DNA of 64,000 bases from NCBI GenBank assembly GCA_964433555.1, contig CAYSRG010000005.1, positions 10,141-74,140 on the forward strand. The letters run 5' to 3'. The position numbers were made by a program, and so were the translations under genes. Below are positions 130 to 64,000 of the stretch, in pieces. A model generated the notes under the pieces. It had not been told where the DNA came from. It did no database searches and worked only from the letters and a program-made list of their open reading frames with translations. Numbering within the stretch: the stretch's first letter is position 1; the number at the start of each line of letters is the position of its first letter. This stretch comes from an uncultured Atribacterota bacterium (GTDB lineage: Bacteria > Atribacterota > Phoenicimicrobiia > Phoenicimicrobiales > Stramentimicrobiaceae).

Positions 130-460
130 TTATTAGTATTGAGTATATAGTATCGAATATCGAGTCCAAGAGAAGAGAAGAAGAGAAAATTAATTTCTTG
201 AATCTTGTCTTTCACTAAATACAAATAACTAACTACTAACACATTATCGAGCTAAGAGTAAAAAACCAAAGATAACAAAATAATATAATACTTTAATCTA
301 ATTTTTTAATTAATCTGGAAGCCATTTTGCAAATATATTGAATTTTCTCTACCATTTCCCCTTTTAGCTCTTCTCTTATATAACCTAACTCATGGGAAAT
401 AATTATTTGTACAAAATTATTTATATTTACTATATACTACATACTCGATACTCAATACAG
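130..460. repeat. ~330-bp non-coding element bounded by imperfect inverted repeats
   Basis: Outer inverted repeats gtattgagtat...cgagt (135-167) and actcgatactcaatac (443-458). Inner inverted repeats aagagaagag (171-190) and ctcttctctt (~370-385). No ORF. Confidence 0.4.
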
Positions 461-463
461 ATT

Positions 464-1195
464 TTATAAGGCAAAACGTTCACCAAGATAATATTTTCGG
501 GTTATTTCTGAACTGGCTACTTCAGAAGGATCACCAGAAGCCAATATTTTTCCATCATGCATAATATAAGTACGATCAGTAATCTTCATGGTCTCCCTAA
601 CATTGTGGTCAGTAATTAGAATACCCAGTCCCTTTTCTTTTAAGTAGCCAATAATTTCCTGAATATCATAAACCGCAATAGGATCTATGCCAGTAAAAGG
701 TTCATCCAGCAGTATAAAGGATGGTGAACTGGCCAGAGTACGTGCAATTTCTACTCTTCGTCTCTCACCACCGGAAAGCATATAGCCCTTATAATCAGCT
801 AAGTGTTTAATTTCTAACTCCTGTAACATTTTAGAACATCTTTTTTCTCTTTCGGTACGTTCTATACCAAGGGCTTCCAGAATTAACAAAATGTTTTCCT
901 CAACAGTTAATTTCCGAAAAATAGAAGGTTCCTGAGCGAGATACCCTAATCCCATCCGTGACCGTTGAAACATTGGTATGTGAGTAATATCTTTGCCTCT
1001 AAAAAACACCTTTCCCTTATCCGGACGAATTAATCCAGTTATCATATAAAAGGTAGTTGTTTTCCCGGCTCCATTAGAACCGAGTAAACCAACTACCTCT
1101 CCTCTATTGATTTCTATATTAACTTCATCAACAACTTTGCGTCTGCGATAAATCTTAACCAGTTGTTCGGTCCATATTTTTTCCAAATTTTCCAA
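464..1195 (-). CDS. lptB: LPS export ABC transporter ATP-binding protein LptB
   Basis: 243 aa. Walker A GSNGAGKTT, ABC signature LSGGERRRVEIAR. LptB-type GLGYLAQEPSIFRKLTVEEN motif. Confidence 0.85.
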   Translation of the reverse strand: MENLEKIWTEQLVKIYRRRKVVDEVNIEINRGEVVGLLGSNGAGKTTTFYMITGLIRPDKGKVFFRGKDITHIPMFQRSRMGLGYLAQEPSIFRKLTVEENILLILEALGIERTEREKRCSKMLQELEIKHLADYKGYMLSGGERRRVEIARTLASSPSFILLDEPFTGIDPIAVYDIQEIIGYLKEKGLGILITDHNVRETMKITDRTYIMHDGKILASGDPSEVASSEITRKYYLGERFAL

Positions 1196-1266
1196 ATGCT
1201 TCTCCCGAAAATTGATTGATAACTAACTGCAAGCTAATTAAATAAACCTTTATCTAAAATAATGAT

Positions 1267-1797
1267 TTATTTGCTGGAGGTAATCCTCTGAATTTCAGCA
1301 ATTACATCCTGCGTCAGATGCTCACCACCATATAAAATGACTGGGTATTCATTGAGGTCATTTCCGGTAAATACTGGAACTTCACTATTAATAATTACTT
1401 GATACTTACCTTTTTCCCCAACAGCCTTTATTGCTTGCAGGATATCTGAATTCCTTTCTGCCTGTAAAGCTTGCATCTGTGCTAATATCTTCTGTTTTAC
1501 CGGTTCCCATTCTGCATTAAATTTCTCCTCCAATTTTTTAAGTTCTGTCTCTTCCAGTCCTTTTCCTTCTTGATTGAGTTTTTCCTGCCTGGTCTGTAAT
1601 TCTGTTCTTAATTCTTGGTTTAACTGATTTATTTTTTCGGTATTAGGATGACTGGCAGTTACTTTAGCCAAACTAACATAACCAACATTCTGAGCTAAAG
1701 CACCTATGGTGAAAAAAGTTAATAAAAAAGCAATTGCTGTTAATAAAAAAGCTACTTTGTATCTGCCCACTATTCTTGCCTTCAAGTTAAAAGTCAT
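1267..1797 (-). CDS. skp: Skp/OmpH-family periplasmic chaperone
   Basis: 176 aa. N-terminal signal/TM segment, then Lys/Glu/Gln-rich coiled-coil typical of OmpH. Lies between bamA and lptB. Confidence 0.7.
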   Translation of the reverse strand: MTFNLKARIVGRYKVAFLLTAIAFLLTFFTIGALAQNVGYVSLAKVTASHPNTEKINQLNQELRTELQTRQEKLNQEGKGLEETELKKLEEKFNAEWEPVKQKILAQMQALQAERNSDILQAIKAVGEKGKYQVIINSEVPVFTGNDLNEYPVILYGGEHLTQDVIAEIQRITSSK

Positions 1798-1966
1798 ATG
1801 CTATCTTCCTCCTTAATTTATATGTTAAATACCATAGAATTTTTCAAATATAATTATTAATCAAGTATTTATACTAATACGGTTACGGTTTCTTAAAATA
1901 ACAAATAAAAACAAAAATAATTTATACTAGGTTATTCCTTAAAATTAAATATATACACATTATAAA

Positions 1967-3739: not shown

Positions 3740-3945
3740 TCATTCCTTTAATAAAAAGTTTTCACTTTTTCTATTATATAACATATCTTAAAATATCTAA
3801 ACCAATTCTAAGAAAATTATTTCAGAAAAATTATTAATTTTACCAAAATGAGATTCAGAATGGTCTATAAATATTTAAAATAGGTGGCAAGGTACCATAT
3901 AGCTTATGGCTTATGCTGCTAATTAGAATAATTCCCTCTGGTAAA

Positions 3946-8369: not shown

Positions 8370-8666
8370 ATAATAAATTCCTCTCTTAGTCTTAATAGCA
8401 TAATTTTATTCAGTAAATTGTTACCACTTGCCATTATCTTTTAGTTATACAATGGAAATTCTTCCCCTTGAAAATCTCTAAAATTATTCTTCAGCTCGAT
8501 ATGAATTAATCCTTTTTTACTGAATATGTTTAAGCAATATAACTTCTTACTTTGCATATCTGTAAAATATTCAGTTATTATATCATAATCTTTCTGCTAA
8601 AACTATTTTGCTAGAGTATTAATAAATGCTAAATAAGTAATAAATATATAGTTAAACAATAATTTT

Positions 8667-10010: not shown

Positions 10011-10036
10011 TAAAAATGAAAGTGATCTTTTTTATA

Positions 10037-10435
10037 CTATTCATTGTTACTTTCTCTTTCCATCTGTTTCATCTTCTTCCAGACTGCAAGCGCCTCTTCA
10101 GCGCTATTAACTTGAACATTGCTAAAAACATGAGGGTGGCGACGGATAAATTTTTCTTTAGCACCATTTAATACCTGTTGATAATCAAATAGCCCTTCTT
10201 CTCTGGCTATCTGTATCTCCAGCAAAATATCCATTAACAAATCTCCCAGTTCCTCACATAAATTTTGAGAATTTTCATTCTCTACAGCTTCTTTTATTTC
10301 TTGCGCTTCCTCCAGGATATTAATCACCATGGAGCTCAGGGTTTGTTTTTTATCCCAGAGACAACCCTGGGGACCTCTGAGTTGAGTAACAATAGAAATT
10401 AATTCCGAAAATAATTCTTTCTCTTTCTGGAACAT
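10037..10435 (-). CDS. MazG-like nucleotide pyrophosphohydrolase (single domain)
   Basis: 132 aa. EEAQEIKEA...ELGDLLMDIL motifs of the MazG/NTP-PPase all-alpha family. Confidence 0.65.
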   Translation of the reverse strand: MFQKEKELFSELISIVTQLRGPQGCLWDKKQTLSSMVINILEEAQEIKEAVENENSQNLCEELGDLLMDILLEIQIAREEGLFDYQQVLNGAKEKFIRRHPHVFSNVQVNSAEEALAVWKKMKQMERESNNE

Positions 10436-10644
10436 TAAAAAAGGTTCTCCTTCCTGATCTGTCCAAACAGCCTTTTAATGTCTACCTATTATTTTATTTT
10501 AAGATAATTATAATTACATTATATTAAAAAAGTTTTAATAACATTTAAATTAAATATAAAATTTTTATAAAAATATTGGCAATATTCTCAATCATATTAT
10601 ATCAAGGATATTCAAGGGGAATCCTTCCCCTTGAGAACCCCGTT

Positions 10645-10760
10645 ACTCAGTATATAGTATATCGTAGTGAATTACTATAGATATAGTATACCGTACTAAG
10701 TATATTGTATATCGTCAATTTAGTCGTCAGTAGTTGGTAGTTAGCATTTGGTATCCAGTA
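10645..10760. repeat. three tandem imperfect ~20-bp AT-rich direct repeats (AGTATATAGTATAYCGTA) plus GTAGTT-rich tail
   Basis: Units at 10649-10666, 10676-10696 and 10699-10718. Same core recurs at 135-167, 428-458 (reverse complement), 19790-19830 and 63077-63100. Confidence 0.65.
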
Positions 10761-10814
10761 TTTAACTATTTAATTAACCAACATATAGGTAACACTTTTG
10801 ATTCAGGACATAGG

Positions 10815-13800
10815 TTACACTGTTTCAGGAATAACTGTCTTTAAAAAAGATAAATATTGATGGAGAATGCTATGGGAATGGACTAAATTATCAGTCTCCT
10901 GGAAAATCATTTTTAATTCATAATAACGACCTCTCTGAGAGTAGCTTATATTCTTTCTGGTTTCAATCTTTAGGGCATTTTTAATTTTACTCTCCAAAGG
11001 AAAACCTATTTGGTATTTAATAGAAACATAGCGATTAGTTATCCTGATGTTGGTCACTCCTTGATTTTTTAACTTTAATTTCAGTTGAACTAACAGTAAT
11101 AGATTTTCAACCTCTCCTGGATAAATGCCATAGACATCCTGTAGTTCCCTTCTTAAATCATTTAGTTCTTTCTCCGTTTTTATTTGACTTAGCCTTTGAT
11201 AATAACTTATTCTTAATTCAGGATTGGAAATATAATACTCTGGAATATAACTATCCAGCTTTGCTTCAATTTCTGGTTCTGGTTCCTGTTCTATAGTGCT
11301 GACAGTCTCAATCTGGCGAAGCTGATTAATACTCTCTTCCAGCAACTGGCAGTAATAATTGAAACCTACTTCACTTACAAAGCCATGCTGTTCTTTACCC
11401 AGTAAATTACCAGCTCCTCTTATCTCTAAATCACGCATTGCCAGTCGGAAACCTGAACCTAAATCACTAAATTCCTTAATAGCCTCTAACCGTTTTCTGG
11501 CATTATCGCTCAATATCTTTTGAGTGGGATAAAGCAGATAGGCATAAGCCCTTCGATTACTGCGACCAACTCTTCCTCTAAGTTGATATAGCTGGGATAA
11601 ACCAAACTGATGAGCATCATCAATAATGATAGTATTAACATTGGGTATATCCAGACCTATTTCAATAATTGTGGTACAGATTAAAACATCATAATATCGG
11701 TTTAGAAAATCTATCATTATATTTTCCAGTTTTTCTTCAGGCATTTGACCATGAGCAATGACTACTTTTGCCTCCGGGATGAGAAGATTTAACTTTTCAG
11801 CAATATAATCAATATCCTGAACCCGATTATAAACATAATATACCTGACCGCCTCTTTCTAGTTCTCGTCTAATTGCTTCTCTGATAGTGTCATCTGTCTT
11901 GGGTTTGAAAAAAGTAATTATTGGTAAACGCAACTCTGGTGGAGTATTAATAATACTCATCTCTCTAATTCCAGTTAATGATAAATATAGTGTTCTTGGA
12001 ATTGGGGTAGCTGTTAAAGTAAGAGAGTCAACCTGTTCTCTTATTTTTTTTATCCGTTCTTTATGAATTACCCCAAAACGTTGTTCTTCATCAACTACCA
12101 ATAAACCGAGATCTCTGAAGACTACATCTGGCTGAACAAGACGATGAGTTCCAATAATAATGTCAATATCACCTTTTTTTAAATCAACAACTATTTCTTG
12201 CTGTTCCTTTTTAGATTTAAATCTGGAAAGCATTTCGATTCTAACTGGGAAAGCCTTCATCCTTTCGGTAAAATTTTCCCAGTGTTGCTGTGCCAGAATA
12301 GTAGTAGGAGCCAGTACTGCCACCTGTTTGCTATCCATAACCGCTTTAAAAGCAGCCCTGATAGCTATTTCGGTTTTACCATAACCCACATCTCCACATA
12401 TCAGACGTTCCATAGGTTGAGCTGACTCCATATCCTTTTTGACATCCTGAAAGGCTTTTTCCTGATCAGGTGTCTCCTCAAAGGGGAAAGCCATCTCTAA
12501 TTCCTGTTGCCATACCGTATCGGAAGAAAAAGAGAAACCTTGAATACTCCTTCTCTTTCGGTATAACTCAAATAATTCTAGTGCCGCTTTTTGAATAGAC
12601 TCTCTCACTCTTCTTTTCGTTATTCTCCAGGTACTATCTCCCAAGCGATTAAGCCTGGGTGGATTTCCTCCCACCCCAATATATTTATGAACCATAGACA
12701 ATTGTTCAATTGGGACATAAAGTTCATCATCAGCAGCATATTTAATTAAAAGGTAATCCCGTCTGATACCATCTGTACTACGCGATTTAATTCCAGCATA
12801 TTGTCCAATGCCATGGTTTATATGAACTACAAAATCTCCTATTTTTAATTCATCTAATTGATAAAAAGGTTGGCCTTGAAATTTTCGTGGTTTATAGCTT
12901 TTATCTCTCTGCTTGCCAAAGATCTCCTGTTCAGTAATAACGGAAAGATTAAGAGCAGGGATGAAAAAACCATAATTAACCTGTCCATAACTCAAACATA
13001 CCTTTCCAGGATATAAATCTACTTCAGGCAAAGCCATTATTTGATAATCTCTAAATCCCCGGTCTTCAAATATTTCTACCAGCCGTAAAGCCCGGCCTTT
13101 ATTGCTGGCTAAAACCAGAATATTTTGCTTTTCCTCCTGACTTTTCTTTATATCTTTAAAAAAGAATTCCAGATTGCCAAAATAATTCTCAGCAGGTTTT
13201 GTTTCTATTGGAAAAAACGGATAATCCTTAAATATTTTTTGACCTGGAGTAGAATCCTTTTGCTCTAACCAAGATTCTATTGTTAACAATCTCTGTTTTT
13301 GATAAAGCAATTCATTGACCTGATTCCAGGTTAAGTAGTAATACTCCGGAGGTAATAGATCTTTACGATCATCCTTTTTAGCCAGAAAAGATTTCTCGCT
13401 TTCCTTTTCAAAATCCTGAACATTTTTTTCAAAATCCGAAAATTGATGAATAAAAATATCGGTTTGATGAGGTAAATAATCAAAAAAGGAATTCGTTTCT
13501 TTCTCTTTTTCATCTAATGCTGGACTTAGTTCTCTTTGGGGAAGCAGTAGAATTTCCTCAATCTTTTTAATAGATCGTTGTGATCCCGGATCAAAAAAAC
13601 GAAGGGAAGCAATTCTATCTCCGTCTAACTCTATTCTTAAAGGATTTTCCTCAGTAGGAGGGAATACATCAATAATTCCACCTCGTTGACTGAATTGCCC
13701 TTGTGTTTCAATCATACCTGAGGAGTGATAGCCCTGTTCTATAAGAAATTTTAGAAAGCATTCCACTTTTAGTTGACCTTCTCGCTGTAACTTAAGGTGC

Positions 13801-16758: not shown

Positions 16759-16999
16759 AATCCGTTTACCTCCGCAGTAATTCTTTTTCTAAATTAATGA
16801 TTTTACTTAAGATTATCAGAGGAGTGAACTCCCCTGACTGCCTCTATCCCTTCTTTTGATACATATTGATTTTCTTTAAAATTAACATAATACCTGGTTA
16901 AAATATTTTTAAAATATTTATCTTAGAGAGCATCTGGTTTTTGTAATTCTGATACTCTAAAATATTATAAAATAATTATCCAGTTGACTTGTTCAGTTA

Positions 17000-19580: not shown

Positions 19581-19789
19581 TTCAATTAATGTTCAAAGGG
19601 AATGCTTCCCCTTGAGAATTTCTTAAATTAACCTCAAATTTAATATTGGTCAATCCTAAGACCTGTCTTTAATGTCTTTTCTTTGATAAATCTAATTTTT
19701 ACTTAAAGTGCAATAGTTATAACAATCACACTATCCTAAAATACAACGGAGCAACAGAGCATATATTATTTCTTGTTCAAAATATTTTT

Positions 19790-19830
19790 ATAGTAGTATC
19801 GAAATTAAAGAGTATTTCCGATACTACTAT
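19790..19830. repeat. long imperfect hairpin of the TATAGTA(G)TATCG repeat family
   Basis: atagtagtatcgaaat / atttccgatactactat inverted repeat with 8-nt loop. Shares the core with repeats at 135-167, 428-458, 10645-10718 and 63077-63100. Confidence 0.5.
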
Positions 19831-19972
19831 ATGCTCATTTCTTATTAGATTTTTTAGTCAGGAGAATCACTTATTGTTGCCCTTCTTATTCTCCTGACCA
19901 TTTTAAATTAAATTTAGCCTACTAATATTATAATAAACCAATCAATATTTTAAGCAAACTAAATCTAATTTC

Positions 19973-20804: not shown

Positions 20805-21062
20805 AAACTTTTTATTTTTTACAAATATTTAACAATTATAACTGGATTAGTTGTCAGTCATTTGTATTCAGTCATCAGATAGTTATTTGGTTTCTGATAT
20901 TTCGTTATTGGTTTTTGGTTAAGAATAATGAAACTACATTTTAAATTGCCAATACTTACTATTTACTCATTATATAATTAAAGCCTGGCTAAAATAATTA
21001 AGCAAATGAGGTCTAATTTAAACTGCTTAACTATCATGCTTTATTGCAGATTTCAACAAAAA

Positions 21063-26215: not shown

Positions 26216-26267
26216 TAATCAAACAATCCCTTCTGTTTCTCCTCTACTGTCTGAATTAAAATGTTTT

Positions 26268-26504
26268 CTAACGATTAACAAAGGGGAGCAGGGCAACCTC
26301 TCTTGCTCTTTTTATTGCCGCAGCCAGGGTTCTCTGATGTTTAGCACAATTTCCAGTAACTCTACGTGGCAAAATCTTCCCCTGATCACTTATAAAACGA
26401 TTTAAAAGTTCGACATCTTTATAGTCTGCTTCTTTTTTTTCAGCACAAAAGTAGCAAATCTTTTTTCTTACTCGTAATCCTCTATAATTATTCCTTCTTA
26501 TCAT
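26268..26504 (-). CDS. rpsR: 30S ribosomal protein S18
   Basis: 78 aa. KKICYFC...[25 protein letters not shown]...KHQR signature. Confidence 0.9.
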
Positions 26505-26594
26505 TCACCATTTCCTTCCTGTTTTCCATATCTTGATATCTTAAATAATCTAAATGTTTACTATTAAAATTACCTTACTAAAGTAAATTAAGAC

Positions 26595-26924: not shown

Positions 26925-27064
26925 TTACTCACCTCCTTCTGGTCATAATAGCCCCTCCCCGGTATTTCGGTTAGGAGCAAGGAAAAATGCTTTATCATTA
27001 TAACATTCAGTATTTTATATATCAAGATTTATATTACAATAAATTTTCTAAAATAATCTTTTAC

Positions 27065-27253
27065 TCAATCTCTTTTAATTATCAGTCTAATCCTTCTTTC
27101 AATCTTTGCTCTGGGAACCAATACCTTTCTACCACAACAAAGACATCTTAATCCAATATCAATTCCAGTCCTGGTTATCTCCCAATGATATCCTCCACAG
27201 GGATGTTTCTTTTTTAATTTAACTATATCTCCTACTCTTAAATCCAGCGGCAT
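27065..27253 (-). CDS. small CxxC zinc-ribbon protein (DUF951-like)
   Basis: 62 aa. Motif DIVKLKKKHPCGG...W.I.R.G.D....C..CGR. A DUF951 gene precedes rpsF in Bacillus. Confidence 0.5.
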   Translation of the reverse strand: MPLDLRVGDIVKLKKKHPCGGYHWEITRTGIDIGLRCLCCGRKVLVPRAKIERRIRLIIKRD

Positions 27254-27269
27254 TGATTGCTCCTACTTT

Positions 27270-30546: not shown

Positions 30547-30890
30547 GTATAGAGCCTCTTTTAGTTAAGATTTTATTATAATAATATATAATTAATTTTC
30601 TGCTTTTCAGGAATATAAATTAACAGACATTCACCTGTATAACAGGTGATTTAAGATACTTAAACCGTTTTATTTAGTCATGAACACCTTAAAAGAAGGT
30701 AATCTTCAATACTGAAATAAATTATTTCCTTTGAGGTGTATCAGGGGTACCTTCCCTGAATACCTTGTCTTAAAAATATTATATGATAAATTCCATTTAT
30801 ACCTGAGTTATAATAATTTTAGAAATTATATACCCTTAGAATCAAATATAGCATTATTGTACCTTATTTAGTTTATTTAAAAAAGATTAT

Positions 30891-30931
30891 TTCATAGTAG
30901 GGGAAATTCAAAAAATTTCCCCTACTATGAA
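30891..30931. repeat. perfect 18-bp-stem hairpin / palindrome with GGGGA core
   Basis: ttcatagtaggggaaatt-caaaa-aatttcccctactatgaa. Lies in the 730-bp divergent intergenic region between mreB and the permease gene. Confidence 0.7.
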
Positions 30932-31276
30932 ATAATGATAACATGTTTTCTAAAATACAAAAAAATAATATTTCTTTCTACCGTAAATGATTTTTTATGT
31001 TATTATATTTTTAGACTATATTTCAAAGCCTCAAATGGATCTGGCGTAATTATATAATACATTCCATTTGTTTAGCAATCCAACTTTGACAATTTCATGA
31101 TTTTTTCCAGGCAAAAAATACCAGAACCATTATTTGCCTGATATTTTTAGTAAATATTTATTTTGAAAATAATAGCTAATAAGGCAAACTTATTAATAAA
31201 AATTATCTCAGATCAAGAGAGCAAGGTAAGATTCTATGGTCGAACCACAATCGATTCTCAGGTGGTGTTCTGATTC

Positions 31277-33374: not shown

Positions 33375-34385
33375 TTAGCAAATTCTGGGGAGTTGTTCTC
33401 CACTAAGCATCCCCACTATTCTTTTTCCACCAATATCAGTTTTTAGAGACACTTCTGATCTTCCCTGAGCAATTACTCTACCGATAATAGCCGATTGCTT
33501 TCCATGCCTGCTGGTCTTAATCTTCTGTACTACTTCTTCGGCAAATTGCTCTGGTAAAAAGGCAATTAACTTTCCCTCATTGGCTAAATAAAGAGGATCA
33601 TAACCCAGAATTTTACAGGTATCTTTTACTGTTTCCTCAATAGGAATTTGCTCTTCTTCAATTTCTATTTCCACCTGAGAAGATTGGGCAATTTCATTTA
33701 AAGCAGTAGCCAGTCCGCCTCTGGTAGGATCACGTAATACATGTATTTCCTTGGTTATAGATAGCATCTCTTGTACTAAATCAGCCAGGGGAGCTGTGTC
33801 GCTTATGATACTCTCTTCAAGCTGAAGGTTTTCTCGAGAAGCCAGAATGCTAATACCATGATTTCCGATAGGTCCATTGATAATAATTACATCATTAATC
33901 TGTGCTCTCCCGGGATGAATGTGAACATCTGAATCAATATAACCTATTCCTGTGGTATTTATAAATATACCATCAACATCTCCTTTATTGACAACCTTGG
34001 TATCTCCGGTAACTATCTGAATGCCTGTTTTTTTTGCCGATTCAGCCATGCTACGGGTTATTTGTTCCAGAATTTGCATTGAAATACCCTCTTCAATAAT
34101 AAAAGATACACTGAGGTATTTTGGGATAGCTCCACACATGGCTATATCATTTATGGTCCCATGTATTGCTAGATGTCCGATATTCCCACCTTTAAAAAAT
34201 ATGGGGCTCACAGTGTAAGAGTCTGTAGAAAAGGCTATTTTTTTATTGGTTGGTGGTAAAACTGCTCCATCGTGCAGTTTATTCAAGATTGGATTATTAA
34301 AATATTTTAAAAATAGAGAACGAATTAACTGGTTAGTTAATTTACCTCCACTACCATAATCCAGAGTTATTATTTGGTCGGTCAT
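33375..34385 (-). CDS. hypE: [NiFe]-hydrogenase maturation carbamoyl dehydratase HypE
   Basis: 336 aa. PurM-like fold, N-terminal DYGSGG, C-terminal ...PRIC ending in the catalytic Cys. Confidence 0.9.
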   Translation of the reverse strand: MTDQIITLDYGSGGKLTNQLIRSLFLKYFNNPILNKLHDGAVLPPTNKKIAFSTDSYTVSPIFFKGGNIGHLAIHGTINDIAMCGAIPKYLSVSFIIEEGISMQILEQITRSMAESAKKTGIQIVTGDTKVVNKGDVDGIFINTTGIGYIDSDVHIHPGRAQINDVIIINGPIGNHGISILASRENLQLEESIISDTAPLADLVQEMLSITKEIHVLRDPTRGGLATALNEIAQSSQVEIEIEEEQIPIEETVKDTCKILGYDPLYLANEGKLIAFLPEQFAEEVVQKIKTSRHGKQSAIIGRVIAQGRSEVSLKTDIGGKRIVGMLSGEQLPRIC

Positions 34386-34644
34386 CGTTTATCCTTTCTT
34401 TAGAGAACATGGCAAACTCTTTTAGTTTATCACTATATTTTACCGAATTGGTTTACAGTTTTTAGTTTTTAGTTTCAGAACCGGATAAATAAGCAAGAAA
34501 AATAATATTCCATATTTCACTATTTTTTATTATTGCCGCAGTGTTCTAATAAATTAGAAACACATCAGTGAATATTACTGGTATTGATTTATTTAAACTG
34601 ACTACTGTAATTAAACTTTTTTAATTATTCCTATATTTATAATA

Positions 34645-35727: not shown

Positions 35728-35939
35728 GACTGTATTTCCTCCCAGATTTGATTTATCTCATTTGCCTCCCGGGAGTTGATTTTAGTAATGGCATATCCAG
35801 CATGAATAAGCACATAATCTCCTTCTTCAATTTCAGGTAAAAGGTCAATCCTAACCGACTTTTTTATATTCCCTAACAGAACCTCTGCCTCTTCACAATT
35901 TATTTTTTTTATTATCTTACCAGGGATAGCCAGACACAT
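35724..35939 (-). CDS. hypC: [NiFe]-hydrogenase maturation chaperone HypC
   Basis: 71 aa beginning MCLAIPGKII (conserved Cys2). Confidence 0.9.
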   Translation of the reverse strand: MCLAIPGKIIKKINCEEAEVLLGNIKKSVRIDLLPEIEEGDYVLIHAGYAITKINSREANEINQIWEEIQS

Positions 35940-35969
35940 ACAAATACCTCTTTTACTTTCTCAAAGATC

Positions 35970-38285
35970 TCATTTACACTCTTGAAAACCACATATCATT
36001 TTACCAGACTTGATACGCGCATTAACGACTACCGCCTGCCCCAGGGCAATACAGGCATCGTTAGGCGGTAATTTTTTATGTATTAATACTTTAAAGTTTT
36101 CCTTTTTTAATTTTTTCATAGTTTGAGTTAAAAGAAAGCTATTCTGAAAAACTCCTCCGCTTAAAGCGACATAATTGATATTAAATTCCTTTTTTATTTT
36201 AACACATAAGGAAAGAATAATATCAGCAACTGTGTTATGGAACTGAGTGGCAATTCTGGGTAAAGGAATTTTTCTTTCTAAATCATTAATTATCTGTAGA
36301 AACATTTCTCCAGTATCTACCACCAAGCCGGTAATTTCTCTGGTAATTTTATAATTATAATTATCCTTGTATTTAGTCTGACATAAAGCTTCCAGCTCCA
36401 TAGCAGCTTGCCCTTCAAAATCCACCTCATCTCTTAGTCCAATTAGAGAGGCCACTGCATCAAACAACCTGCCGCAGCTGGAGGTAAGAGGTGAATTAAT
36501 CCTTTTATCTATCATCTGCTTCAGCAACTGAAATTCTTTTTTCTCTCTTCCTTCCCCTAATATTGAGTGAATAGAATCAGCCTCTTGTCCGAAAAGGGGG
36601 TAAAGATAACTAAAAGCCATCCTCCAGGGTTGATGTATAGCCTGCTCTCCCCCGGGCATAGCAATATATTTTAGATGACCCACTCTCAAGCAATCCTTCG
36701 GTGAAACCACCAGGAATTCACCTCCCCAGATAGCACCGTCCAGACCAAAACCGGTACCATCCAAGGCTACTCCAATCACCTTTTCAGATATATGGTTTTC
36801 AGCTGTACAGCTGGCAATATGGGCATGATGATGTTGAATCTTCAACAAAGGCACTCTGAATTGCTGAGATAACTCCTCAGCATAATGAGTAGAAAGATAA
36901 TCAGGATGTAAATCACAGGCAATAACCTTCGGTTTAAATTGAAATACCCGAATCAGACGTTTGATGGCTTCCTGATATGCCTGGAAGCTATCCCTGTTTT
37001 TCAAATCACCCAGATGCTGACTGGGAAAGGCATAACGATCACGAGTAAGACATACTGTATTCTTTTCTTCTGGACCTAAGGCCAGTATAGATTCGGTCTC
37101 CTCCGGGAGCACAATGGGGAATGGGGCATAACCTCTTGACCTTCTAATAAAGATAGAATGATGAGCAGTTATCTTTAAAACAGAATCATCACAGCGATTG
37201 TAAATCTGTCGATTATGAAGAAGTAAAAAGTCAACCTGCTGTACCAATTTCTGAAATGCTTCTTCATTTTGAATGATAATTGGTTCATCGCTGAAATTAG
37301 CACTGGTCATAACCAGGACCAGGCTACTCTTTTGTAATAATAAAATATGTAAGGGGGTATAAGGTAACATAAAGCCAAGATAGGCATTGCCAGGAGCAAT
37401 ATCTGGTGATAAATGGCAACTTCTTTTCTTTTTTAAAAGTACGATGGGCTTCTCCTTACTCTCTAAATATTTCCGAGCCAGCTCTGATACATAACAAAAA
37501 TTTGTTATTTTGGATATACTTTCAGCCATCAAAGCAAAAGGTTTTTGGTCTCTTTTCTTTATTTCTCTAATTCTGGATACGGCTTCCTTATTCTGAGCAT
37601 CACAGCTCAGATGAAACCCTCCTAGTCCTTTTATTACGCCCACTTCTCCTCCTCTCAATCTCTTTTGCGCCTCTTGGATAGGGTCCTGCGTAACAACTTT
37701 CTGGTTACCCGTATAAAGAGAAACTTGTGGGCCACAAACTGGACAGGCATTGGGTTGGGCATGATAGCGACGGTTTTCTAAATCATGATACTCGTTATAA
37801 CAATCAGTACACATAACAAAATTTTTCATAGTAGTCTTATCCCTATCGTAAGGCATATCTTCAATAATAGTAAAACGGGGACCACAATTGGTACAATTAA
37901 TAAAAGGGTAATGATAACGTCGGTTAGAAGGATCATTCAGTTCTGTTATACAATCCTCACAAATAGAAATATCGGGAGGCATAAGAATAACAGGATGTCT
38001 ATGGTTGGATTTGCTCTTCTTTATGACAAATTTGGAATATCCAATAGGGGATAACCTTTCAATTCTGATATCATCAATAAGGGCTAAGGGAGGGAGATGA
38101 TTTTTTAATTCTTTTAAAAATTTCCTACCATCAGATTCCTCTCCTTCAATTTCCATTTCTACTCCCTGATTGGAGTTACAAATCCATCCATATAAATTAT
38201 ATTTTTTTACCAATTTATGAATAAAGGGACGAAAACCTACTCCCTGAACAATGCCATATATAGTAAGCTTGTATCTTATTTTCAT
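35970..38285 (-). CDS. hypF: carbamoyltransferase HypF
   Basis: 771 aa. Acylphosphatase domain, two Cys4 zinc fingers (CxxC..CxxC x2), YrdC and Kae1/HypF carbamoyltransferase domains. Confidence 0.9.
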   Translation of the reverse strand: MKIRYKLTIYGIVQGVGFRPFIHKLVKKYNLYGWICNSNQGVEMEIEGEESDGRKFLKELKNHLPPLALIDDIRIERLSPIGYSKFVIKKSKSNHRHPVILMPPDISICEDCITELNDPSNRRYHYPFINCTNCGPRFTIIEDMPYDRDKTTMKNFVMCTDCYNEYHDLENRRYHAQPNACPVCGPQVSLYTGNQKVVTQDPIQEAQKRLRGGEVGVIKGLGGFHLSCDAQNKEAVSRIREIKKRDQKPFALMAESISKITNFCYVSELARKYLESKEKPIVLLKKKRSCHLSPDIAPGNAYLGFMLPYTPLHILLLQKSSLVLVMTSANFSDEPIIIQNEEAFQKLVQQVDFLLLHNRQIYNRCDDSVLKITAHHSIFIRRSRGYAPFPIVLPEETESILALGPEEKNTVCLTRDRYAFPSQHLGDLKNRDSFQAYQEAIKRLIRVFQFKPKVIACDLHPDYLSTHYAEELSQQFRVPLLKIQHHHAHIASCTAENHISEKVIGVALDGTGFGLDGAIWGGEFLVVSPKDCLRVGHLKYIAMPGGEQAIHQPWRMAFSYLYPLFGQEADSIHSILGEGREKKEFQLLKQMIDKRINSPLTSSCGRLFDAVASLIGLRDEVDFEGQAAMELEALCQTKYKDNYNYKITREITGLVVDTGEMFLQIINDLERKIPLPRIATQFHNTVADIILSLCVKIKKEFNINYVALSGGVFQNSFLLTQTMKKLKKENFKVLIHKKLPPNDACIALGQAVVVNARIKSGKMICGFQECK

Positions 38286-38477
38286 CTTTTCCCCGAAATA
38301 TATTTAAGTACAATGGTTTTTGGTTAAAGGTTTTTGGTTAAAATAGTTAGCATTTAATATTTTTTGTCTTTGATACCCATTATTACTTTTAGTTCTATTT
38401 TATTAAATATTAAAATCTGATACTATATTTTTCTTACACTATACATTATACGATATGAAGTTGATTAAAGAATGGCA

Positions 38478-54424: not shown

Positions 54425-54638
54425 TCTTTTTCACCTCATTTCATTTATATTACCCGTAATCAGGGGAGATAGACCTTGAAACCACTTAAGTAAATATGTT
54501 TAAAAAAATTTCTTTCATCTTATAATCAGTATATCCAGGGAAATTATTCCCCTTAGGAATATCTGAACACTTCTTCTATATGGATTATGTAAATAAATTC
54601 GCTTTAGCAAATATCAAAACTTCAAAGAAATTTCGATA

Positions 54639-56866: not shown

Positions 56867-56877
56867 CTGTAGTCACC

Positions 56878-57393: not shown

Positions 57394-57421
57394 ATTATCA
57401 CCTGAACCTTCTCATTTTATT

Positions 57422-57892: not shown

Positions 57893-57896
57893 TGTG

Positions 57897-58238: not shown

Positions 58239-58239
58239 A

Positions 58240-60152: not shown

Positions 60153-60153
60153 T

Positions 60154-60633: not shown

Positions 60634-60896
60634 TTTGCCACCTCCCTAAATAATGCCACAATACCTACCACTGCTGTAAATAAAACAGTTGCCTCTCCCA
60701 GGGTATCAAAACCACGGTAATCGAAAACTATGGTAGTTACTACATTATTAGCTCCTGTTTCAGCCTGAGCATTTTCTATATAATAGTCATCCATTTCACT
60801 AAAAGCTGGCTCCCCAAAAGGTCTCATACCAAAGGCTGCTAGAATCATAAAAGCCACAAATAATATAAAAGCAATACCAAATATTGATTTTTTCAT
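60630..60896 (-). CDS. mbhE: Mbh subunit E: small membrane protein
   Basis: 88 aa. Confidence 0.5.
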   Translation of the reverse strand: MKKSIFGIAFILFVAFMILAAFGMRPFGEPAFSEMDDYYIENAQAETGANNVVTTIVFDYRGFDTLGEATVLFTAVVGIVALFREVAK

Positions 60897-60907
60897 AATC
60901 TCACCTC

Positions 60908-61150
60908 TTACTTCTTTGTTGCCCTGATGGCAAAAATATAAATTGCCATAGTCAAAGCTGCCCCAATTCCTGCTTCTGCTATTGCTACATCAGGAGCATG
61001 CAGAAGATAAAATTCTAAGGACAAAAGCAAACTGGCTGCAGCCAGGGCAATAACTGAAGGTAATAAATCCCTTAGTACTACAGCTAAAATTGATGCAATA
61101 ATCATAACAACCAGTACGGCAATATGAGCAATACTTACTAATGGGCTCAT
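60908..61150 (-). CDS. mbhD: Mbh subunit D: small membrane protein
   Basis: 80 aa, 3 TM. Confidence 0.5.
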   Translation of the reverse strand: MSPLVSIAHIAVLVVMIIASILAVVLRDLLPSVIALAAASLLLSLEFYLLHAPDVAIAEAGIGAALTMAIYIFAIRATKK

Positions 61151-61509: not shown

Positions 61510-61781
61510 TTATCTTTTGCCCTCCTCTCAAGATATTTAGCAATATACAGAGTAGCAATATATGATAATAAGGCATATACTATTGCCACATCGATATAAA
61601 TAACTTCTTCAAAAGCTGCACCAAATAGAATCATTCCTGCTACAATTAAAGTATTAATGGTATCCATAGCCACAACACGATCAGGTACAGTGGGACCGGA
61701 AATCAAACGAAACAGAGATATTAGAATAAATACTGTTAACAATACTCCTGTAATTAAAAAATAGTTCAACAATTGAGTCAT
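61506..61781 (-). CDS. mbhB: Mbh subunit B: MrpF-like
   Basis: About 91 aa from MTQLL. ATGA overlap with the mbhA stop. The ORF-track start at 61820 is probably too long. Confidence 0.65.
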
Positions 61782-62287
61782 TCTGCTATCCTCCTCGCCC
61801 ATTCGGGAAAAGTACCGCAAATATCTTCAATAGAAGGTTTCAAATTAGTGACATTAATCCAATGGATATAAAGATCATTATTCTTTTCATCTATATCCAC
61901 ACTTAGTGTTCCAGGAGTAAGGGTAATAGAGTTTGCCAGTAAGGTTATGGCAGCATCGCTCTTTAATTTGGGAGATATTTTTACAATACCTGGGTTGATT
62001 TTACCTGTAATTACGCGGTAAGCAACATCAATATTTGCTTTGGCCATAGCATAAAAAAAGGGGCCGACCAGATAAAACAAAAAAATAACCCATTTTAATG
62101 GGTTTAAAAGGTGGTAACGTTTTTTCTGAAATAATACTCTGGCAGAGATAATAGTTACAATAAGACCAACAATTAGGGCGGCTATTATTTCATTTTGACT
62201 CCATAATCCCAAAACTTCTCCTTGACTGGCAGTTAAAAATAGATAAGCGAAAAAACTCAAAACAAAAGTGATAATAAAACTTATCAT
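61778..62287 (-). CDS. mbhA: Mbh subunit A: MrpE-like
   Basis: 169 aa. LTPGTLSVD motif typical of MnhE. Confidence 0.7.
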
Positions 62288-62727
62288 TACATCACCTCGC
62301 TATAGGTCTGTATTTATTGATTGACTATAATGGGTAAGGTTTACTAAAAAAAATCTTTGATTTATTGTTGTTTTACTATTTCTTATTATCAAAATAGATT
62401 TGTTAAAGAACTTACCAAAATATATCATTCTTACAATTTTATGATTCATTTCTATTTTACAAAACACTGGCAAAAGTATAGCACATTTTTACCGGATGAT
62501 GCAATTTCTTTAGCAAAATTTTTTATTCTCTTTTTCTCTAGATTCCTGTTTATCCTGTACCGCATCTCTCCACTCATTATTTTCTCTTTCTTCTTACTTA
62601 CAGTAAAAATTATGACCTTATCTATCTTAAATCTTTAATAGTAAAACAAAAAAATAAAAAGGGCACCAACGTCCCCTTCATAACTATCATTATAATAAAA
62701 TTTTAATTTCTCTTAAAATAGAATCTA

Positions 62728-62815
62728 TGGTGCCGGGAGGGGGATTTGAACCCCCACAAGCAATATGCCTACCAGCCCCTCAAGCTGGCGCGTCTACCTA
62801 TTCCGCCATCCCGGC
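62728..62815 (-). tRNA. tRNA-Leu (anticodon GAG)
   Basis: 88-nt class-II tRNA on the minus strand. Anticodon loop UUGAGGG, long variable arm, CCA encoded. Confidence 0.8.
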
Positions 62816-63095
62816 AATTAATTAAAAGATGGCATTGTGTATATTGTTTTTAAGCGAAACCATTAGTTTAAAATCATCAATATAAAACTGAGTACTAAAT
62901 ATCTAAAATAGCTTATAGATTTTTTGTGTTTTTACATATTCAATGTAACTTCTGATTTTGTAGTTTTATTCTATCATTACAGTCATGCTTACATTATTTA
63001 TTATCTCACGTTTTATGGTATACGATTTTTACTTAATACGCGATACTCACGACACACGACTATTTTATTTTATACCTCATACGGTATATGTTATA

Positions 63096-64000
63096 CTATA
63101 TTAATTTCACAAGTTTTTTATTTTCTATTTTGCCAGGTATCCGCCCTCTTTTGGCAATTGGCTTTCCTTCAACTTCCTTAATATCAAGAGTCATATCAAT
63201 GGGTGAGGCATCGCTAATGTAACTACCCACTCCAAAGGCATCAACAGCTTCCTTGCTTAATAAAACAATTCTCTCTGGTGTTACTCCTCCTGAAACAAAA
63301 ATCTTAACATGAGCATATCCTGCCTGATCTAATCGTGCTCGTACCTCTTTAACCAAATCAGGGGATACTCCTCCTCTTTCACTTGGAGTGTCAAGACGGA
63401 CACCCAGAAGGTTCTTGCCCAACGCATTAGCAACCCTAATTGATTCTTCAGCCTCATCCTTGAAAGTATCTATCAAAATTACTCTGGGTATATCCGGAGA
63501 AAAACAGTCATGATAAGTTTTTGCTGCTTTCACTGTATCCCCGGTAATTATTATTACAGTATGTGGAATAGTACCTTGAGGTTCTTGCCCCATCAATTTT
63601 GCTCCCAGTACACAACTTGCTCCATCCACTCCTCCAATAAGTGCTGCTCTTTCCATAACAGGAGCAACAGCTGGATGAATATGCCGCGAGCCAAAACAGA
63701 TAATTTTTTTACCATTGGCGACCTCACGGCATTCCCATGCTGCAGTTGCCCAGGCAGAACTACTGGCTAATATCCCTAATATAATTGTTTCATACACTCC
63801 AAATTCATTATAGGGACCCTGGATTCTCATTACTGTCTCTTTGGATTGAAATGAATCTCCTTCTTGTAGTGACCAAAGTTTGATCTTTTTATCTTTGAGC
63901 AAATTATATACTTCCTGTACACCAGCAAAAATTCCTGCTCGCCTGGCAAATATTTCTGCAGTAACCTCTTTATCATCCAGTTTCAAGAAATTAAGGAGCT
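63096..64000 (-). CDS. nicotinate phosphoribosyltransferase-family protein (PncB/NadC-like), N-terminally truncated by the window edge
   Basis: GVRLDTPSERGG resembles the NAPRTase GVRLDSGD motif. The ORF stays open upstream of the TTG at 63986 to the window end. Confidence 0.55.
   Translation of the reverse strand, partial: LLNFLKLDDKEVTAEIFARRAGIFAGVQEVYNLLKDKKIKLWSLQEGDSFQSKETVMRIQGPYNEFGVYETIILGILASSSAWATAAWECREVANGKKIICFGSRHIHPAVAPVMERAALIGGVDGASCVLGAKLMGQEPQGTIPHTVIIITGDTVKAAKTYHDCFSPDIPRVILIDTFKDEAEESIRVANALGKNLLGVRLDTPSERGGVSPDLVKEVRARLDQAGYAHVKIFVSGGVTPERIVLLSKEAVDAFGVGSYISDASPIDMTLDIKEVEGKPIAKRGRIPGKIENKKLVKLI

Follow-up and report, generated by a model that had tools for sequence, protein, structure and literature searches.

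Intergenic heptameric simple-sequence arrays are a known class, exemplified by cyanobacterial STRR, Xanthomonas GGGAATC and Beggiatoaceae TAACTGA repeats. The STRR units CCCCAGT, TTGGTCA and CAACAGT all contain AGT or GGT, like the core of the Atribacterota arrays described here; in both, tandem heptamers occupy non-coding DNA at numerous places in each genome, but they differ in phylum and in words. For STRR we know of no description of a polarity rule or of a relation to stop and start codons. The heptanucleotides of Calothrix, Nostoc and Anabaena are cited as STRR by Rehm et al. 2015 (PMC4692102), who describe the GGGAATC heptamers of Xanthomonas as intergenic and mostly transcribed; these make up 70-75 convergent inverted pairs and occupy the same spacers in two Xanthomonas species with varying length. 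TAACTGA repeats lie a few nucleotides upstream of start codons (MacGregor 2015, PMC4679880).

We analyzed a 64,000-nt stretch ("the window") of an uncultured Atribacterota metagenome-assembled genome (GCA_964433555.1, CAYSRG010000005.1 positions 10,141 to 74,140). On sequence criteria, its arrays are a new example, in Atribacterota, of this class. Like Xanthomonas GGGAATC and Nostoc GGGGA(C/T)T, they have a 7-base unit, are intergenic and include perfect and heterogeneous arrays (PMC4692102); in both sets convergent inverted pairs are frequent, the arm that contains G coming first, and the same spacers of related species are occupied with varying length and sequence. However, the GGGAATC and GGGGA(C/T)T units are G-rich and G-quadruplex-capable, whereas the Atribacterota words are AT-rich, carry a single G and cannot form quadruplexes, so quadruplex formation cannot be the explanation common to both; Atribacterota also mixes several words per array and is much more degenerate. 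TAACTGA repeats (marine Beggiatoaceae, some Cyanobacteria, Bacteroidetes) likewise comprise 2-6 or more units near start codons (PMC4679880), in one orientation relative to the gene with the ACT-type strand on the mRNA, and precede genes without a common functional class; their rotated complement is AGTTATC, and the window genome carries GGTTATC AGTTATC. One word dominates there and "related heptamers are rarely found as direct repeats", whereas Atribacterota uses a lexicon with the core alone in common. Unlike TAACTGA, Atribacterota arrays are also found at stop codons, in the opposite orientation, and they form inverted pairs.

A seven-base unit with an (A/G)GT core

The original prediction described a dispersed intergenic family with an 18-base core, and its non-random dispersal was borne out: allowing ≤3 mismatches, AGTATATAGTATAYCGWA has seven matches in the window against 0.23 expected, and 0 of 100 dinucleotide shuffles reach seven.

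135-152, 10649-10666 (exact), 10678-10695 and 10699-10716, plus strand: AGTATATAGTATAYCGWA matches (≤3 mismatches)
421-438, 428-445 and 63080-63097, minus strand: AGTATATAGTATAYCGWA matches (≤3 mismatches)

The same mismatch search in related genomes gave 24 matches in 347 kb of Atribacterota sequence (8 of the 23 loci of our comparison set) and 3 in 1.09 Mb of unrelated, higher-GC control loci. The copies proposed at 135-167, 428-458 (inverted), 10649-10718 (three) and 63077-63100 (inverted) stand; the one at 19790-19830 does not, as it has no match within three mismatches and shares only word composition with the core (AGTAGTATCG). All copies lie outside open reading frames, as proposed, except that the first TAG of the 63027-63097 array (minus strand), within the match at 63080-63097, doubles as the stop of the nadC-like ORF 63096-63986.

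The unit is not 18 bases long. AGTATATAGTATAYCGWA consists of two and a half heptamer words, TRF returns a period of 7 at 10649-10712, and 10649-10763 read in register holds ~16 units with GT at unit positions 2-3 in 13. The irregular spacing of the three 18-mer "tandem copies" at 10649-10716 (one exact, the others with 3 and 2 mismatches), 29 and 21 nt, follows from the true unit being the heptamer: a T-(A/G)-G-T core plus a 3-base variable part (e.g. AGTATAT, AGTATCG, AGTATTG, AGTCGTT, AGTTTTT, GGTTTAT). RGT chains with period 7 number 5 in the window against 0.2 in shuffles, with 0-1 at periods 5, 6 and 8-11. The 23 Atribacterota loci contain 38 period-7 chains and the controls 2 (11 versus 0.18 per 100 kb), and periods 5, 6, 9 and 10 yield 0-2 chains in the 347 kb (0-0.6 per 100 kb). 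A motif-blind detector found 10.7 period-7 regions per 100 kb in Atribacterota versus 0.55 in controls. At these loci, degenerate heptanucleotides stand in tandem, with an (A/G)GT core kept in seven-base phase. Copies absent from the original prediction lie at 1-24, 10720-10763 and 63027-63076, with T-rich ones at 20886-20920, 34450-34477 and 38307-38342. The features of the window are:

1-24, plus strand: array AGTATAT AGTCGTT GGTAAAA, ACY-type on the gene strand
101-125, minus strand: GGGG hairpin module GGGGTTTCAGGGGAGATTTCCCCTG (gene strand), directly 3' of an ACY array
135-169, plus strand: array AGTATTG AGTATAT AGTATCG AATATCG AGTCCAA, forming the 3' (ACY-sense) arm of an inverted pair; a purine tract follows at 168-189
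425-459, minus strand: array TGTATTG AGTATCG AGTATGT AGTATAT AGTAAAT, 5' (RGT-sense) arm, beginning 5 nt past the TAA stop of an ABC ATPase gene (464-1195)
10613-10641, minus strand: GGGG hairpin module GGGGTTCTCAAGGGGAAGGATTCCCCTTG, directly 3' of an ACY array
10649-10763, plus strand: ~16 degenerate heptamers, unpaired, ACY-type on the gene strand, with the mfd stop on one side and the GGGG hairpin on the other; AGTATAT AGTATAT CGTAGTG AATTACT ATAGATAT AGTATAC CGTACTA AGTATAT TGTATAT CGTCAAT, then, after tt, AGTCGTC AGTAGTT GGTAGTT AGCATTT GGTATCC AGTATTT
19790-19830, no strand assigned: 16-bp hairpin ATAGTAGTATCGGAAAT...ATTTCGATACTACTAT with 5'-RGT / 3'-ACY polarity (z -6.4), doubtful as a member of the family
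20886-20920, plus strand: T-rich variant array, TTTGGTT, 5 units, TRF period 7
34450-34477, plus strand: T-rich variant GGTTTAC AGTTTTT AGTTTTT AGTTTCA, ACY-sense, 64 nt ahead of the start of gene 33375-34385
38307-38342, plus strand: T-rich variant GGTTTTT GGTTAAA GGTTTTT GGTTAAA, ACY-sense, 21 nt ahead of the start of gene 35970-38285
63027-63097, minus strand: array AGTATAA CATATAC CGTATGA GGTATAA aataaaat AGTCGTG TGTCGTG AGTATCG CGTATTA AGTAAAA, RGT-type on the gene strand, unpaired

The array at 1-24 is part of a second [array + GGGG hairpin] module that runs past the window start; on the same contig (L093), ...ACCAACGACTATATACTAATAATAAAGGGGTTTCAGGGGAGATTTCCCCTGACTAAATT adjoins the DUF3084 start. 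The tandem locus had been placed upstream of mfd and downstream of the mazG-like gene, but the reverse holds: the genes are on the minus strand (mfd stop 10815, mazG-like start 10435), so that the array follows mfd and precedes the mazG-like gene.

Polarity and predicted folding at gene boundaries

All arrays but 2 are intergenic, and their polarity is strict: the RGT strand points away from the nearest gene, so that pairs run 5'-RGT...ACY-3'. Within Atribacterota spacers, RGT..ACY order outnumbers ACY..RGT by 9 to 0; adjacent pairs in independent metagenome contigs split 40 to 3 (p = 3e-9). Counted near an upstream stop and near a downstream start, respectively, RGT-sense arrays number 12 and 2, ACY-sense arrays 1 and 17 (Fisher p = 5e-6), and 80 independent metagenome loci replicated this split (43/6 RGT-sense versus 11/29 ACY-sense, p = 5e-9). 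Read as mRNA, RGT arrays set in at or close to stop codons and most ACY arrays finish 6-30 nt ahead of the next start codon, the array at 10649-10763 being the sole exception to the position rule among those of ACY sense. Unpaired arrays, and those between convergent genes, keep the polarity.

Folding predicts long stems for paired arrays (z -2.9 to -4.6). MFE and centroid structures alike join the arm at 135-169 to 425-459 (95-470, minus strand, z -2.9), as they do the arms of other spacers (L023 z -4.6, L025 z -3.3, L011 z -3.3, L012 z -3.5). The two best copies of the original prediction are both unpaired, with no significant fold at 10649-10763 (z -1.7 and -1.2) or at 63027-63097 (z -0.1). 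A general test of the first against the second half of spacers was negative overall (mean z -0.36). Each genome draws on a single lexicon, so that the arms of one spacer were no more complementary to each other than arms taken from separate spacers, and spacer-specific covariation is therefore absent.

Persistence and turnover in relatives

Sequence comparison of relatives shows that words, copy number and position turn over and that the presence of an array in a given spacer persists. The same two spacers carry arrays in L007, L009, L011 and L012 with differing words, and orthologous spacers keep arrays that change in words, copy number and position relative to a conserved promoter block. At the mfd-mazG spacer, the 10649-10763 array is partly kept, with indels, in L007 (a 95% relative); L011 has no array there, and in L009 and L012 T-rich words follow the promoter. 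The order array-linker-GGGG hairpin also occurs in L007, L009, L011, L012 and L093. The hairpin at 19790-19830 is kept in L007 and L011, with a different RGT..ACY hairpin at that position in L009 and L012. Over the mfd-mazG spacer, seven metagenome contigs from the same population have 100% identity, and there is therefore no copy-number polymorphism.

Origin and possible role of the arrays

We consider it probable that the arrays are slippage-born, transcribed structural elements at gene boundaries, and not iterons or operators of a dedicated regulator. Slipped-strand or fold-back events would create and expand them in dispensable spacer DNA. Those touching a stop codon or abutting a ribosome-binding site must, judging by that position, be transcribed, and whatever effect they have would be exerted in RNA, as generic structural elements. 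Paired arrays may represent two arms of a non-terminating stem closing a spacer or 5' leader, and lone arrays a G-poor leader or stop-rich trailer. Ongoing slippage gains no support from the population, which shows no length variation, or from the window arrays, which are far from perfect repeats (65% matches in TRF).

The tandem copies had been likened to iterons or regulator binding arrays. Replicon iterons, or an operator array of AGTATATAGTATAYCG units bound by a dedicated double-stranded-DNA-binding regulator of mfd/mazG, would fit the three direct 18-mer copies, two of them 21 bp apart (two helical turns), but the other spacing is 29 bp, and we regard this reading as extremely improbable. 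Cumulative GC skew is monotonic, without an inflection in the 64,000-nt window, which therefore contains no origin; neither a rep nor a dnaA gene turned up, and the flanking genes scanned are housekeeping (mfd, mazG, LptB-like ABC ATPase, nadC, spoVG). Neighbouring genes share no functional class. The same array type recurs in many spacers and the same words in unrelated ones, and the replacement or loss of the mfd-mazG array in relatives, with changes of sequence, copy number and position, makes a specific regulator unlikely; a global single-strand-binding factor is possible as array binder. If the arrays were what is left of a small mobile or duplicative element (MITE- or REPIN-like) with inverted ends made of heptamer words, the fixed RGT...ACY arrangement would arise automatically. 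REP/BIME/REPIN elements are also dispersed and intergenic, form transcript hairpins at gene boundaries and often lie in inverted pairs. Variable interiors flanked by inverted pairs, an [ACY array + GGGG hairpin] module duplicated with 47 identical nt within one spacer, a ~130-nt hairpin-bounded unit repeated 2-3 times in L007 and L008, and TTGTATTTATTTCCTGTATTTTCTTT plus an array in two L023 spacers and again in L030 point this way. A REP, however, is one imperfect palindrome of 20-40 nt with a conserved head; REPs occur in hundreds of near-identical copies and have a cognate RAYT transposase. Atribacterota arms are tandem 7-nt words whose copies share words only, and no RAYT was seen. The 74 kb of window-genome sequence contains short shared words but no long near-identical dispersed copies, neither transposase nor target-site duplications were observed, the duplications present are local and tandem, and many arrays are unpaired; we consider a mobile origin very unlikely.

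Neutral mutation by-products without function seem to us rather unlikely. GT-rich heptamer tracts would slip and fold back via G-T wobble, yielding X-loop-reverse-complement(X) with the GT-rich arm first, and persist only in dispensable spacer DNA. This would account for the turnover of words, copy number and position, also relative to the promoter block, for the lack of a common functional class, and for long perfect arrays, typical of slippage, in mid-to-high-GC metagenome contigs (e.g. near-perfect ~18 x AGTCGGC, (AGTCGTT)8); bacterial heptamer excess has been attributed to polymerase slippage (PMC4692102). It fits poorly with identical words across deep lineages, arrays tight against stop codons and ribosome-binding sites, the polarity of unpaired arrays, and window arrays too degenerate for present slipping that yet keep GT phase. 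An unlikely alternative in which sequence is read by a protein holds that U-R-G-U motifs spaced 7 nt (or 8 nt) apart are recognised by a protein that binds single-stranded RNA or DNA; its binding would determine whether the stem forms and so tune expression at gene boundaries. The binder could have a ~7-nt footprint, like a cold-shock-domain protein, or be a HutP-like oligomer that reads triplets every 7 nt; since transcription reaches the RGU arm first, the protein could bind there before the complementary arm appears, and the strict 5'-RGT polarity fits such co-transcriptional binding. The core is conserved and the spacer variable, ACTA/TAGT columns are often invariant in arrays found by the motif-blind detector (1.00 in L023:11704), and some lineages use 8-base units with an unchanged core. 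The CspB footprint is a heptanucleotide with consensus GTCTTTG/T (PMC1904285), the commonest word here being (A)GTCGTT, and cold-shock proteins were earlier proposed as TAACTGA-repeat binders (PMC4679880). HutP reads three XAG motifs with 4-nt spacers (3+4 = 7 nt) from the 5' site, and HutP/TRAP targets resemble the arrays in a conserved triplet at fixed short spacing, sited in the 5' arm of a hairpin and bound 5' to 3' during transcription (PMC2425495); they are, however, single gene-specific leaders with a terminator, whereas the arrays occupy many loci in both orientations without one, and no HutP or TRAP gene was identified here. Further against a binder, the sampled loci, a small sample, contain no cold-shock-domain gene, a blind tally of conserved triplets is only moderately favourable (ACT/AGT 8/39; ATA and AAA 7 each), half of all arrays show the ACY strand in mRNA, and RGT-core arrays in many unrelated metagenomes at GC 33-71% would imply a universal binder or none.

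Words are common across the phylum (AGTCGTT in 8 loci; AGTATATAGTATCGAGTATTG in L027), and identical ones recur between genomes with MazG only 62-64% identical, as a shared binder would predict. With respect to the slippage-born elements that we favor, such sharing across deep lineages, together with the conserved core, argues for an extra selective or mechanistic constraint beyond slippage.

Seven-base word arrays in the window and related genomes

With up to three mismatches allowed, the core AGTATATAGTATAYCGWA matched seven times in the window against 0.23 expected, a count reached in 0/100 dinucleotide-preserving shuffles of the window; the motif is therefore not AT-rich background, in agreement with the original prediction of a non-random repeat rather than a common AT-rich k-mer. 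The matches fall in strings of degenerate seven-base words with an (A/G)GT core, listed here in register.

Word arrays and core matches (≤3 mismatches) in the window
10649-10763(+), tandem locus between mfd and the mazG-like gene: AGTATAT AGTATAT CGTAGTG AATTACT ATAGATAT AGTATAC CGTACTA AGTATAT TGTATAT CGTCAAT tt AGTCGTC AGTAGTT GGTAGTT AGCATTT GGTATCC AGTATTT; core at 10649-10666(+, exact), 10678-10695(+) and 10699-10716(+)
135-169, array in the ABC-DUF3084 spacer: AGTATTG AGTATAT AGTATCG AATATCG AGTCCAA; core at 135-152(+)
425-459(-), array in the same spacer: TGTATTG AGTATCG AGTATGT AGTATAT AGTAAAT; core at 421-438(-) and 428-445(-)
63027-63097(-), array: AGTATAA CATATAC CGTATGA GGTATAA .. 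AGTCGTG TGTCGTG AGTATCG CGTATTA AGTAAAA; core at 63080-63097(-)
20886-20920, 34457-34475 and 38314-38339: other period-7 arrays found by TRF

The tandem copies had been described as upstream of mfd and downstream of the mazG-like gene; all genes around the loci lie on the minus strand, so this order is reversed: the tandem locus follows mfd and precedes the mazG-like gene. The hairpin at 19790-19830, counted earlier as a family copy, has no core match at ≤3 mismatches; it is a stem-loop in its own right, of 16 bp and very stable (z -6.4). TRF assigned period 7 to 10649-10712, where perfect or near-perfect unit identity was absent (65% matches, 13% indels): words are mixed and degenerate, and the core alone is kept. 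Self-similarity at lag 7 appeared in 21 windows, all in intergenic DNA, and at lags 4, 5, 6 and 8 in none; likewise, (A/G)GT chains in 7-nt phase numbered five versus 0.2 in shuffles, with 0-1 at periods 5, 6 and 8-11. That these loci are heptamer arrays is well supported. At least eight lie within the 64 kb, and a further three within the adjoining 10 kb.

Metagenome contigs encode proteins 100% identical to the mazG-like protein, whose relatives are named Atribacterota; across the mfd-mazG spacer, 7/7 same-population contigs were identical, without polymorphism. Close relatives, given here with the identity of their MazG to that of the window (L007 and L008, 95%; L011, 82%; L009 and L010, 79%; L012, 76%), were compared together with 18 Atribacterota species representatives, 62 non-Atribacterota control loci and L093, the window contig extended 10 kb past the window start. 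Mean GC differed (controls 49%, Atribacterota loci 35%), so other periods within the same loci served as the composition-matched control. A protein look-up for relatives of the nadC-tRNA-Leu spacer found nothing on record.

Chains, periodic regions and core matches in Atribacterota loci (23 loci, 347 kb) and controls (62 loci, 1.09 Mb)
Period-7 RGT chains: Atribacterota 38 (11 per 100 kb); controls 2 (0.18 per 100 kb)
RGT chains at periods 5, 6, 9 and 10: Atribacterota 0-2; controls 0-3
Period-8 RGT chains: Atribacterota 13; controls 0
Period-7 regions per 100 kb, motif-blind detector: Atribacterota 10.7; controls 0.55
18-mer AGTATATAGTATAYCGWA, ≤3 mismatches: Atribacterota 24 matches in 8/23 loci; controls 3 matches

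The enrichment of the 18-mer in related genomes thus bears out the earlier claim of a true repeat family. Period-8 chains derive from octamer arrays present in some lineages, such as GGTTAACT AGTTAACT. Words common to deep lineages include AGTCGTT (8 loci), AGTTTTT, AGTTTAT, AGTAATA, AGTGAAT, AGTATAT and AGTATTT, and L027 (MazG 62% identical) carries AGTATATAGTATCGAGTATTGCGTATTACG, which nearly repeats the words of window loci 1, 2 and 5. From the shared words and the octamers it follows that the AGTATAT family is one form of a broader array type, T-(A/G)-G-T with 3-nt (or 4-nt) spacers.

Five Atribacterota loci (L021, L024, L025, L028, L029) have units of 8 nt that share this core (GGTTAACT, AGTTAGCT, GGTAAATT), placed and oriented like the heptamers; the AGTTAACT octamer is a palindrome by itself.

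Polarity, turnover and predicted folding

The same array reads as RGT or ACY words on opposite strands, and we term it RGT-sense or ACY-sense according to the strand that appears in mRNA. Atribacterota arrays are intergenic except in two cases. In the window, the earlier statement that all copies are intergenic held for every array bar one doubtful match, and failed in part at 63080-63097, since the first TAG of array 63027-63097(-) is the stop codon of the nadC-like ORF. Many RGT-sense arrays overlap a stop codon, and the TAA stop of the window's ABC ATPase is followed by an array 5 nt on; an upstream gene can take its stop codon from an array.

Between co-directional genes of the Atribacterota loci, RGT-sense arrays lie near the upstream gene (stop distances include -2, 3, 3 and 5 nt), and ACY-sense arrays mostly end right before the downstream start (the closest 12/18 end 6-31 nt upstream). 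Near-upstream/near-downstream counts were 12/2 for RGT-sense versus 1/17 for ACY-sense arrays (Fisher p = 5e-6), the sole ACY-sense exception being the tandem locus at 10649-10763; same-spacer pairs were RGT..ACY (RGT arm 5', ACY arm 3') in nine cases and ACY..RGT in none. Because these loci are partly orthologous, the polarity test was replicated on independent metagenome DNA, where a scan for AGTCGTTAGTCGTTAGTNNNNAGT gave at least 120 stretches (GC 33-71%), of which 80 loci were kept. Among the matches listed, the position rule recurred in these loci (43/6 vs 11/29, p = 5e-9), extended to unpaired arrays (p = 3e-4) and to arrays between convergent genes (7/0 vs 0/8), and adjacent pairs were RGT..ACY 40 times and ACY..RGT three times (p = 3e-9), in every GC class. 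Viral-contig scans for AGTAT units at 6, 7 and 8 nt spacing each gave at least 120 matches and so do not inform on period specificity; AGTCGTT arrays were rare in viral contigs (12 stretches).

Just outside the window, two arrays obey the polarity rule: L093:12390-12430 (GGTTATC AGTTATC AGTTTTT AGTTTTT, ~30 nt past the DUF3084 stop) and L093:15490-15550 (ACTAAAAACTAAAAACGAAAAACC...ACTAACGACTAAATACT, immediately 5' of the next gene's ribosome-binding site). Heptamer arrays with an AGT core (AGTCGTT, AGTCGGC, AGTGACG, AGTCGAA) are common in 55-71% GC contigs of the metagenome set, from soil, rhizosphere and other samples, often as tight convergent pairs; some are long and near-perfect (~18 AGTCGGC units).

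Paired arrays are predicted to fold on each other in some spacers. In 95-470(-), array 425-459 pairs with array 135-169 in both MFE and centroid folds (z -2.9), and a long closing stem of this kind is also predicted where a spacer has wholly different words (L023, heptamers, z -4.6; L025, octamers, z -3.3; L011, z -3.3; L012, z -3.5). In the mazG-downstream spacer of L023, L030, L025 and L027, the RGT arm begins ~5 nt after a conserved promoter-like TGATATAAT, the ACY arm lies directly against the ribosome-binding site, and the switch from heptamers to octamers affects both arms together. A start of RGT arrays at transcription start sites fits that spacer and is not general: a -10-like hexamer lay ≤30 nt upstream of 35% of RGT-sense arrays vs 40% of random intergenic 30-mers. 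The unpaired tandem locus 10649-10763 showed no significant self-fold, nor did 62990-63105, which holds the unpaired array 63027-63097. Spacer-specific covariation was also rejected, as same-spacer arms were not consistently more complementary than arms across spacers, because one genome uses one lexicon. A duplex test of first versus second halves of 89 spacers was negative overall (mean z -0.36; only seven below -2), and long closing stems are therefore a trait of some spacers, not all.

Arrays persist while their content turns over. Across the mfd-mazG and ABC-DUF3084 spacers of L007, L009, L011 and L012 the arrays are kept, and words, numbers and positions differ; the mfd spacer of L011 is without arrays. 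T-rich words stand downstream of a conserved promoter block in L009 and L012, and AGTATAT-type words upstream of it in the window and L007. The 95% relative retains two array blocks and the adjoining hairpin, with indels in between. This hairpin is part of a recurrent module, in which an A-rich linker and then a GGGGTTTC-AGGGG..CCCCT hairpin regularly come after the ACY array; array and hairpin are duplicated in the window genome (47 identical nt), the second copy abutting the DUF3084 start.

GGGG hairpins in the window
101-125, 10613-10641, 19594-19614 and 8452-8474 (all minus strand): hairpins
near 16800, 21980, 30740, 52690 and 54450-54540: degenerate copies

Hairpins of the type (GGGG)TTTC-AGGGGA-loop-TCCCCT-GA make up a second repeat family, located in 5' leaders and separated by 10-40 nt from the ribosome-binding site or tRNA that follows. 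A search for AGGGG..YCCCYT gave eight matches vs 0.98 expected; several of these count one hairpin twice, once per strand, and two fall within a tRNA, so that three clear copies remain. AAAGGGG/AAAGGAG 5' of the hairpin resembles a Shine-Dalgarno sequence, the hairpin standing between it and the start codon, and in L007 and L008 a ~130-nt unit bounded by the hairpin occurs in 2-3 tandem copies.

Known heptamer repeats and possible roles

Heptamer repeats have been on record in bacteria for decades, and to our knowledge no function has yet been accepted for them. Like the STRR-like class, the Atribacterota arrays consist of 7-nt tandem units, are non-coding at many loci, occupy orthologous spacers with length and sequence variation and form convergent inverted pairs. 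All defining features of the intergenic heptamer class except unit perfection are present, and the arrays therefore belong to it. Described members include three heptanucleotides in the cyanobacterium Calothrix (cited second-hand in PMC4692102), intergenic GGGGA(C/T)T in Nostoc, and GGGAATC in Xanthomonas, which forms 70-75 convergent inverted pairs per genome, occupies the same spacers in two species at variable length and is mostly transcribed (PMC4692102). The TAACTGA repeats of Beggiatoaceae are found a few nt 5' of start codons, with S1, cold-shock proteins and CsrA as proposed binders (PMC4679880); TAACTGA is ACT-type on the mRNA strand, like Atribacterota arrays upstream of starts, and the window genome has the similar GGTTATC AGTTATC. 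New here are the phylum and its AT-rich lexicon, the explicit RGT core, and a quantified polarity with its relation to stop and start codons. AT-rich Atribacterota arrays cannot form G-quadruplexes, which removes these as a general explanation of heptamer repeats.

Any explanation must accommodate the common (A/G)GT core, the strict GT-arm-first polarity (40 pairs vs 3 among the matches listed) and the tendency of arrays to start on or beside a stop codon and to finish a short way upstream of a start codon. Core, polarity and codon positions point to RNA or single-stranded DNA rather than duplex-DNA operators. We consider it probable that arrays are born by slippage or fold-back and are transcribed, and that their effect, if any, would be that of generic structural elements in the RNA between genes, a role that we infer solely from position and folding. 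The leading alternative is a candidate single-strand-binding protein reading U-R-G-U every 7 nt. Arrays would then be landing pads for a conserved cold-shock-domain-like or HutP-like protein, whose co-transcriptional binding would decide whether long stems form at gene boundaries; it is favoured by the 7-base phase, by conservation of U-R-G-U alongside free spacers (7 or 8 nt) and by the near-absolute GU-rich-arm-first rule, and the same core and polarity recur in 33-71% GC contigs and, on this reading, in the classic repeats of cyanobacteria, Xanthomonas and Beggiatoa. Such recognition has parallels, as HutP reads XAG triplets with 4-nt spacers (PMC2425495) and the CspB footprint is a heptanucleotide, GTCTTTG/T (PMC1904285). 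T-R-G-T does recur at 7-nt (or 8-nt) spacing in the arrays, with a motif-blind tally of conserved triplets favouring the triplet reading only moderately. Of HutP/TRAP-type features, spacers 1-600 and 10400-10900 showed no terminator overlap and no cognate gene was identified; the sampled Atribacterota loci held no cold-shock-domain gene. We regard binding by such a protein as unlikely; if true, it would amount to a widespread layer of post-transcriptional control and finally explain bacterial heptamer repeats.

Three other readings rank lower: arrays of wholly neutral origin, mobile elements, and the iterons proposed originally for the tandem copies. Against iterons, spacing is irregular (29 and 21 nt), cumulative GC skew is monotonic across the window, without the inflection of an origin, and the flanking genes scanned are all housekeeping, with no rep or dnaA. 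Mobile forms fare similarly: the repeat search of the window found no high-identity dispersed array copies of a REP/REPIN kind, the arms being tandem words, and the window plus L093 held no full-length MITE copies, only local tandem duplications of the array and hairpin module. Annotators should not take heptamer arrays for iterons, promoters or regulator sites. Terminators were rejected as well, since spacers 1-600 and 10400-10900, the two scanned, contained no terminator-like site; ordinary terminators of this genome differ, comprising a GC hairpin and then a T run (L093). CRISPR, riboswitch or other known RNA families drew no Rfam match: tRNAs alone reached the gathering threshold of the covariance models, and array loci had no match at E up to 0.1.

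Neighbouring elements

Within the ABC-DUF3084 spacer, 293-355(-) holds a small ORF, MVEKIQYICKMASRLIKKLD, with AAGGGG upstream, inside a ~110-nt block that is conserved with L011 (…EKIQYICKMTSRLIKKLD*) and missing in L007, L009 and L012; the ORF may represent a small protein, what is left of a gene, or an sRNA. Downstream of spoVG, at ~19855-19900(-), a conserved stem GGTCAGGAGAATAAGAAGGGCAACAATAAGTGATTCTCCTGACT without Rfam match occupies the same place in L007, L011, L009 and L012, its interior variable and its arms GTCAGGAG/CTCCTGAC conserved. At 30886-30936, in a 730-nt spacer between divergent genes, two perfectly inverted 23-nt arms (ATTATTTCATAGTAGGGGAAATT / AATTTCCCCTACTATGAAATAAT) enclose a 5-nt loop, an arrangement that looks like a putative operator or bidirectional element. 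A GTCATTGCGAGGAxCGAAGTGACGTGGCAATC-type hairpin, not present in the window, adjoins heptamer arrays at L009:19740-19830, L012:19960-20040, L023:10355-10400 and L007:9230-9300; we take it to resemble a repeat of many uncultured bacteria. Four minus-strand stretches labelled intergenic through the 100-aa ORF cut-off (35728-35969, 26216-26594, 26925-27269 and 60634-61146) are small-protein coding rather than true spacers: 60634-61146(-) encodes hydrophobic proteins, and 35728-35969(-) reads MCLAIPGKI..., presumably HypC-like.
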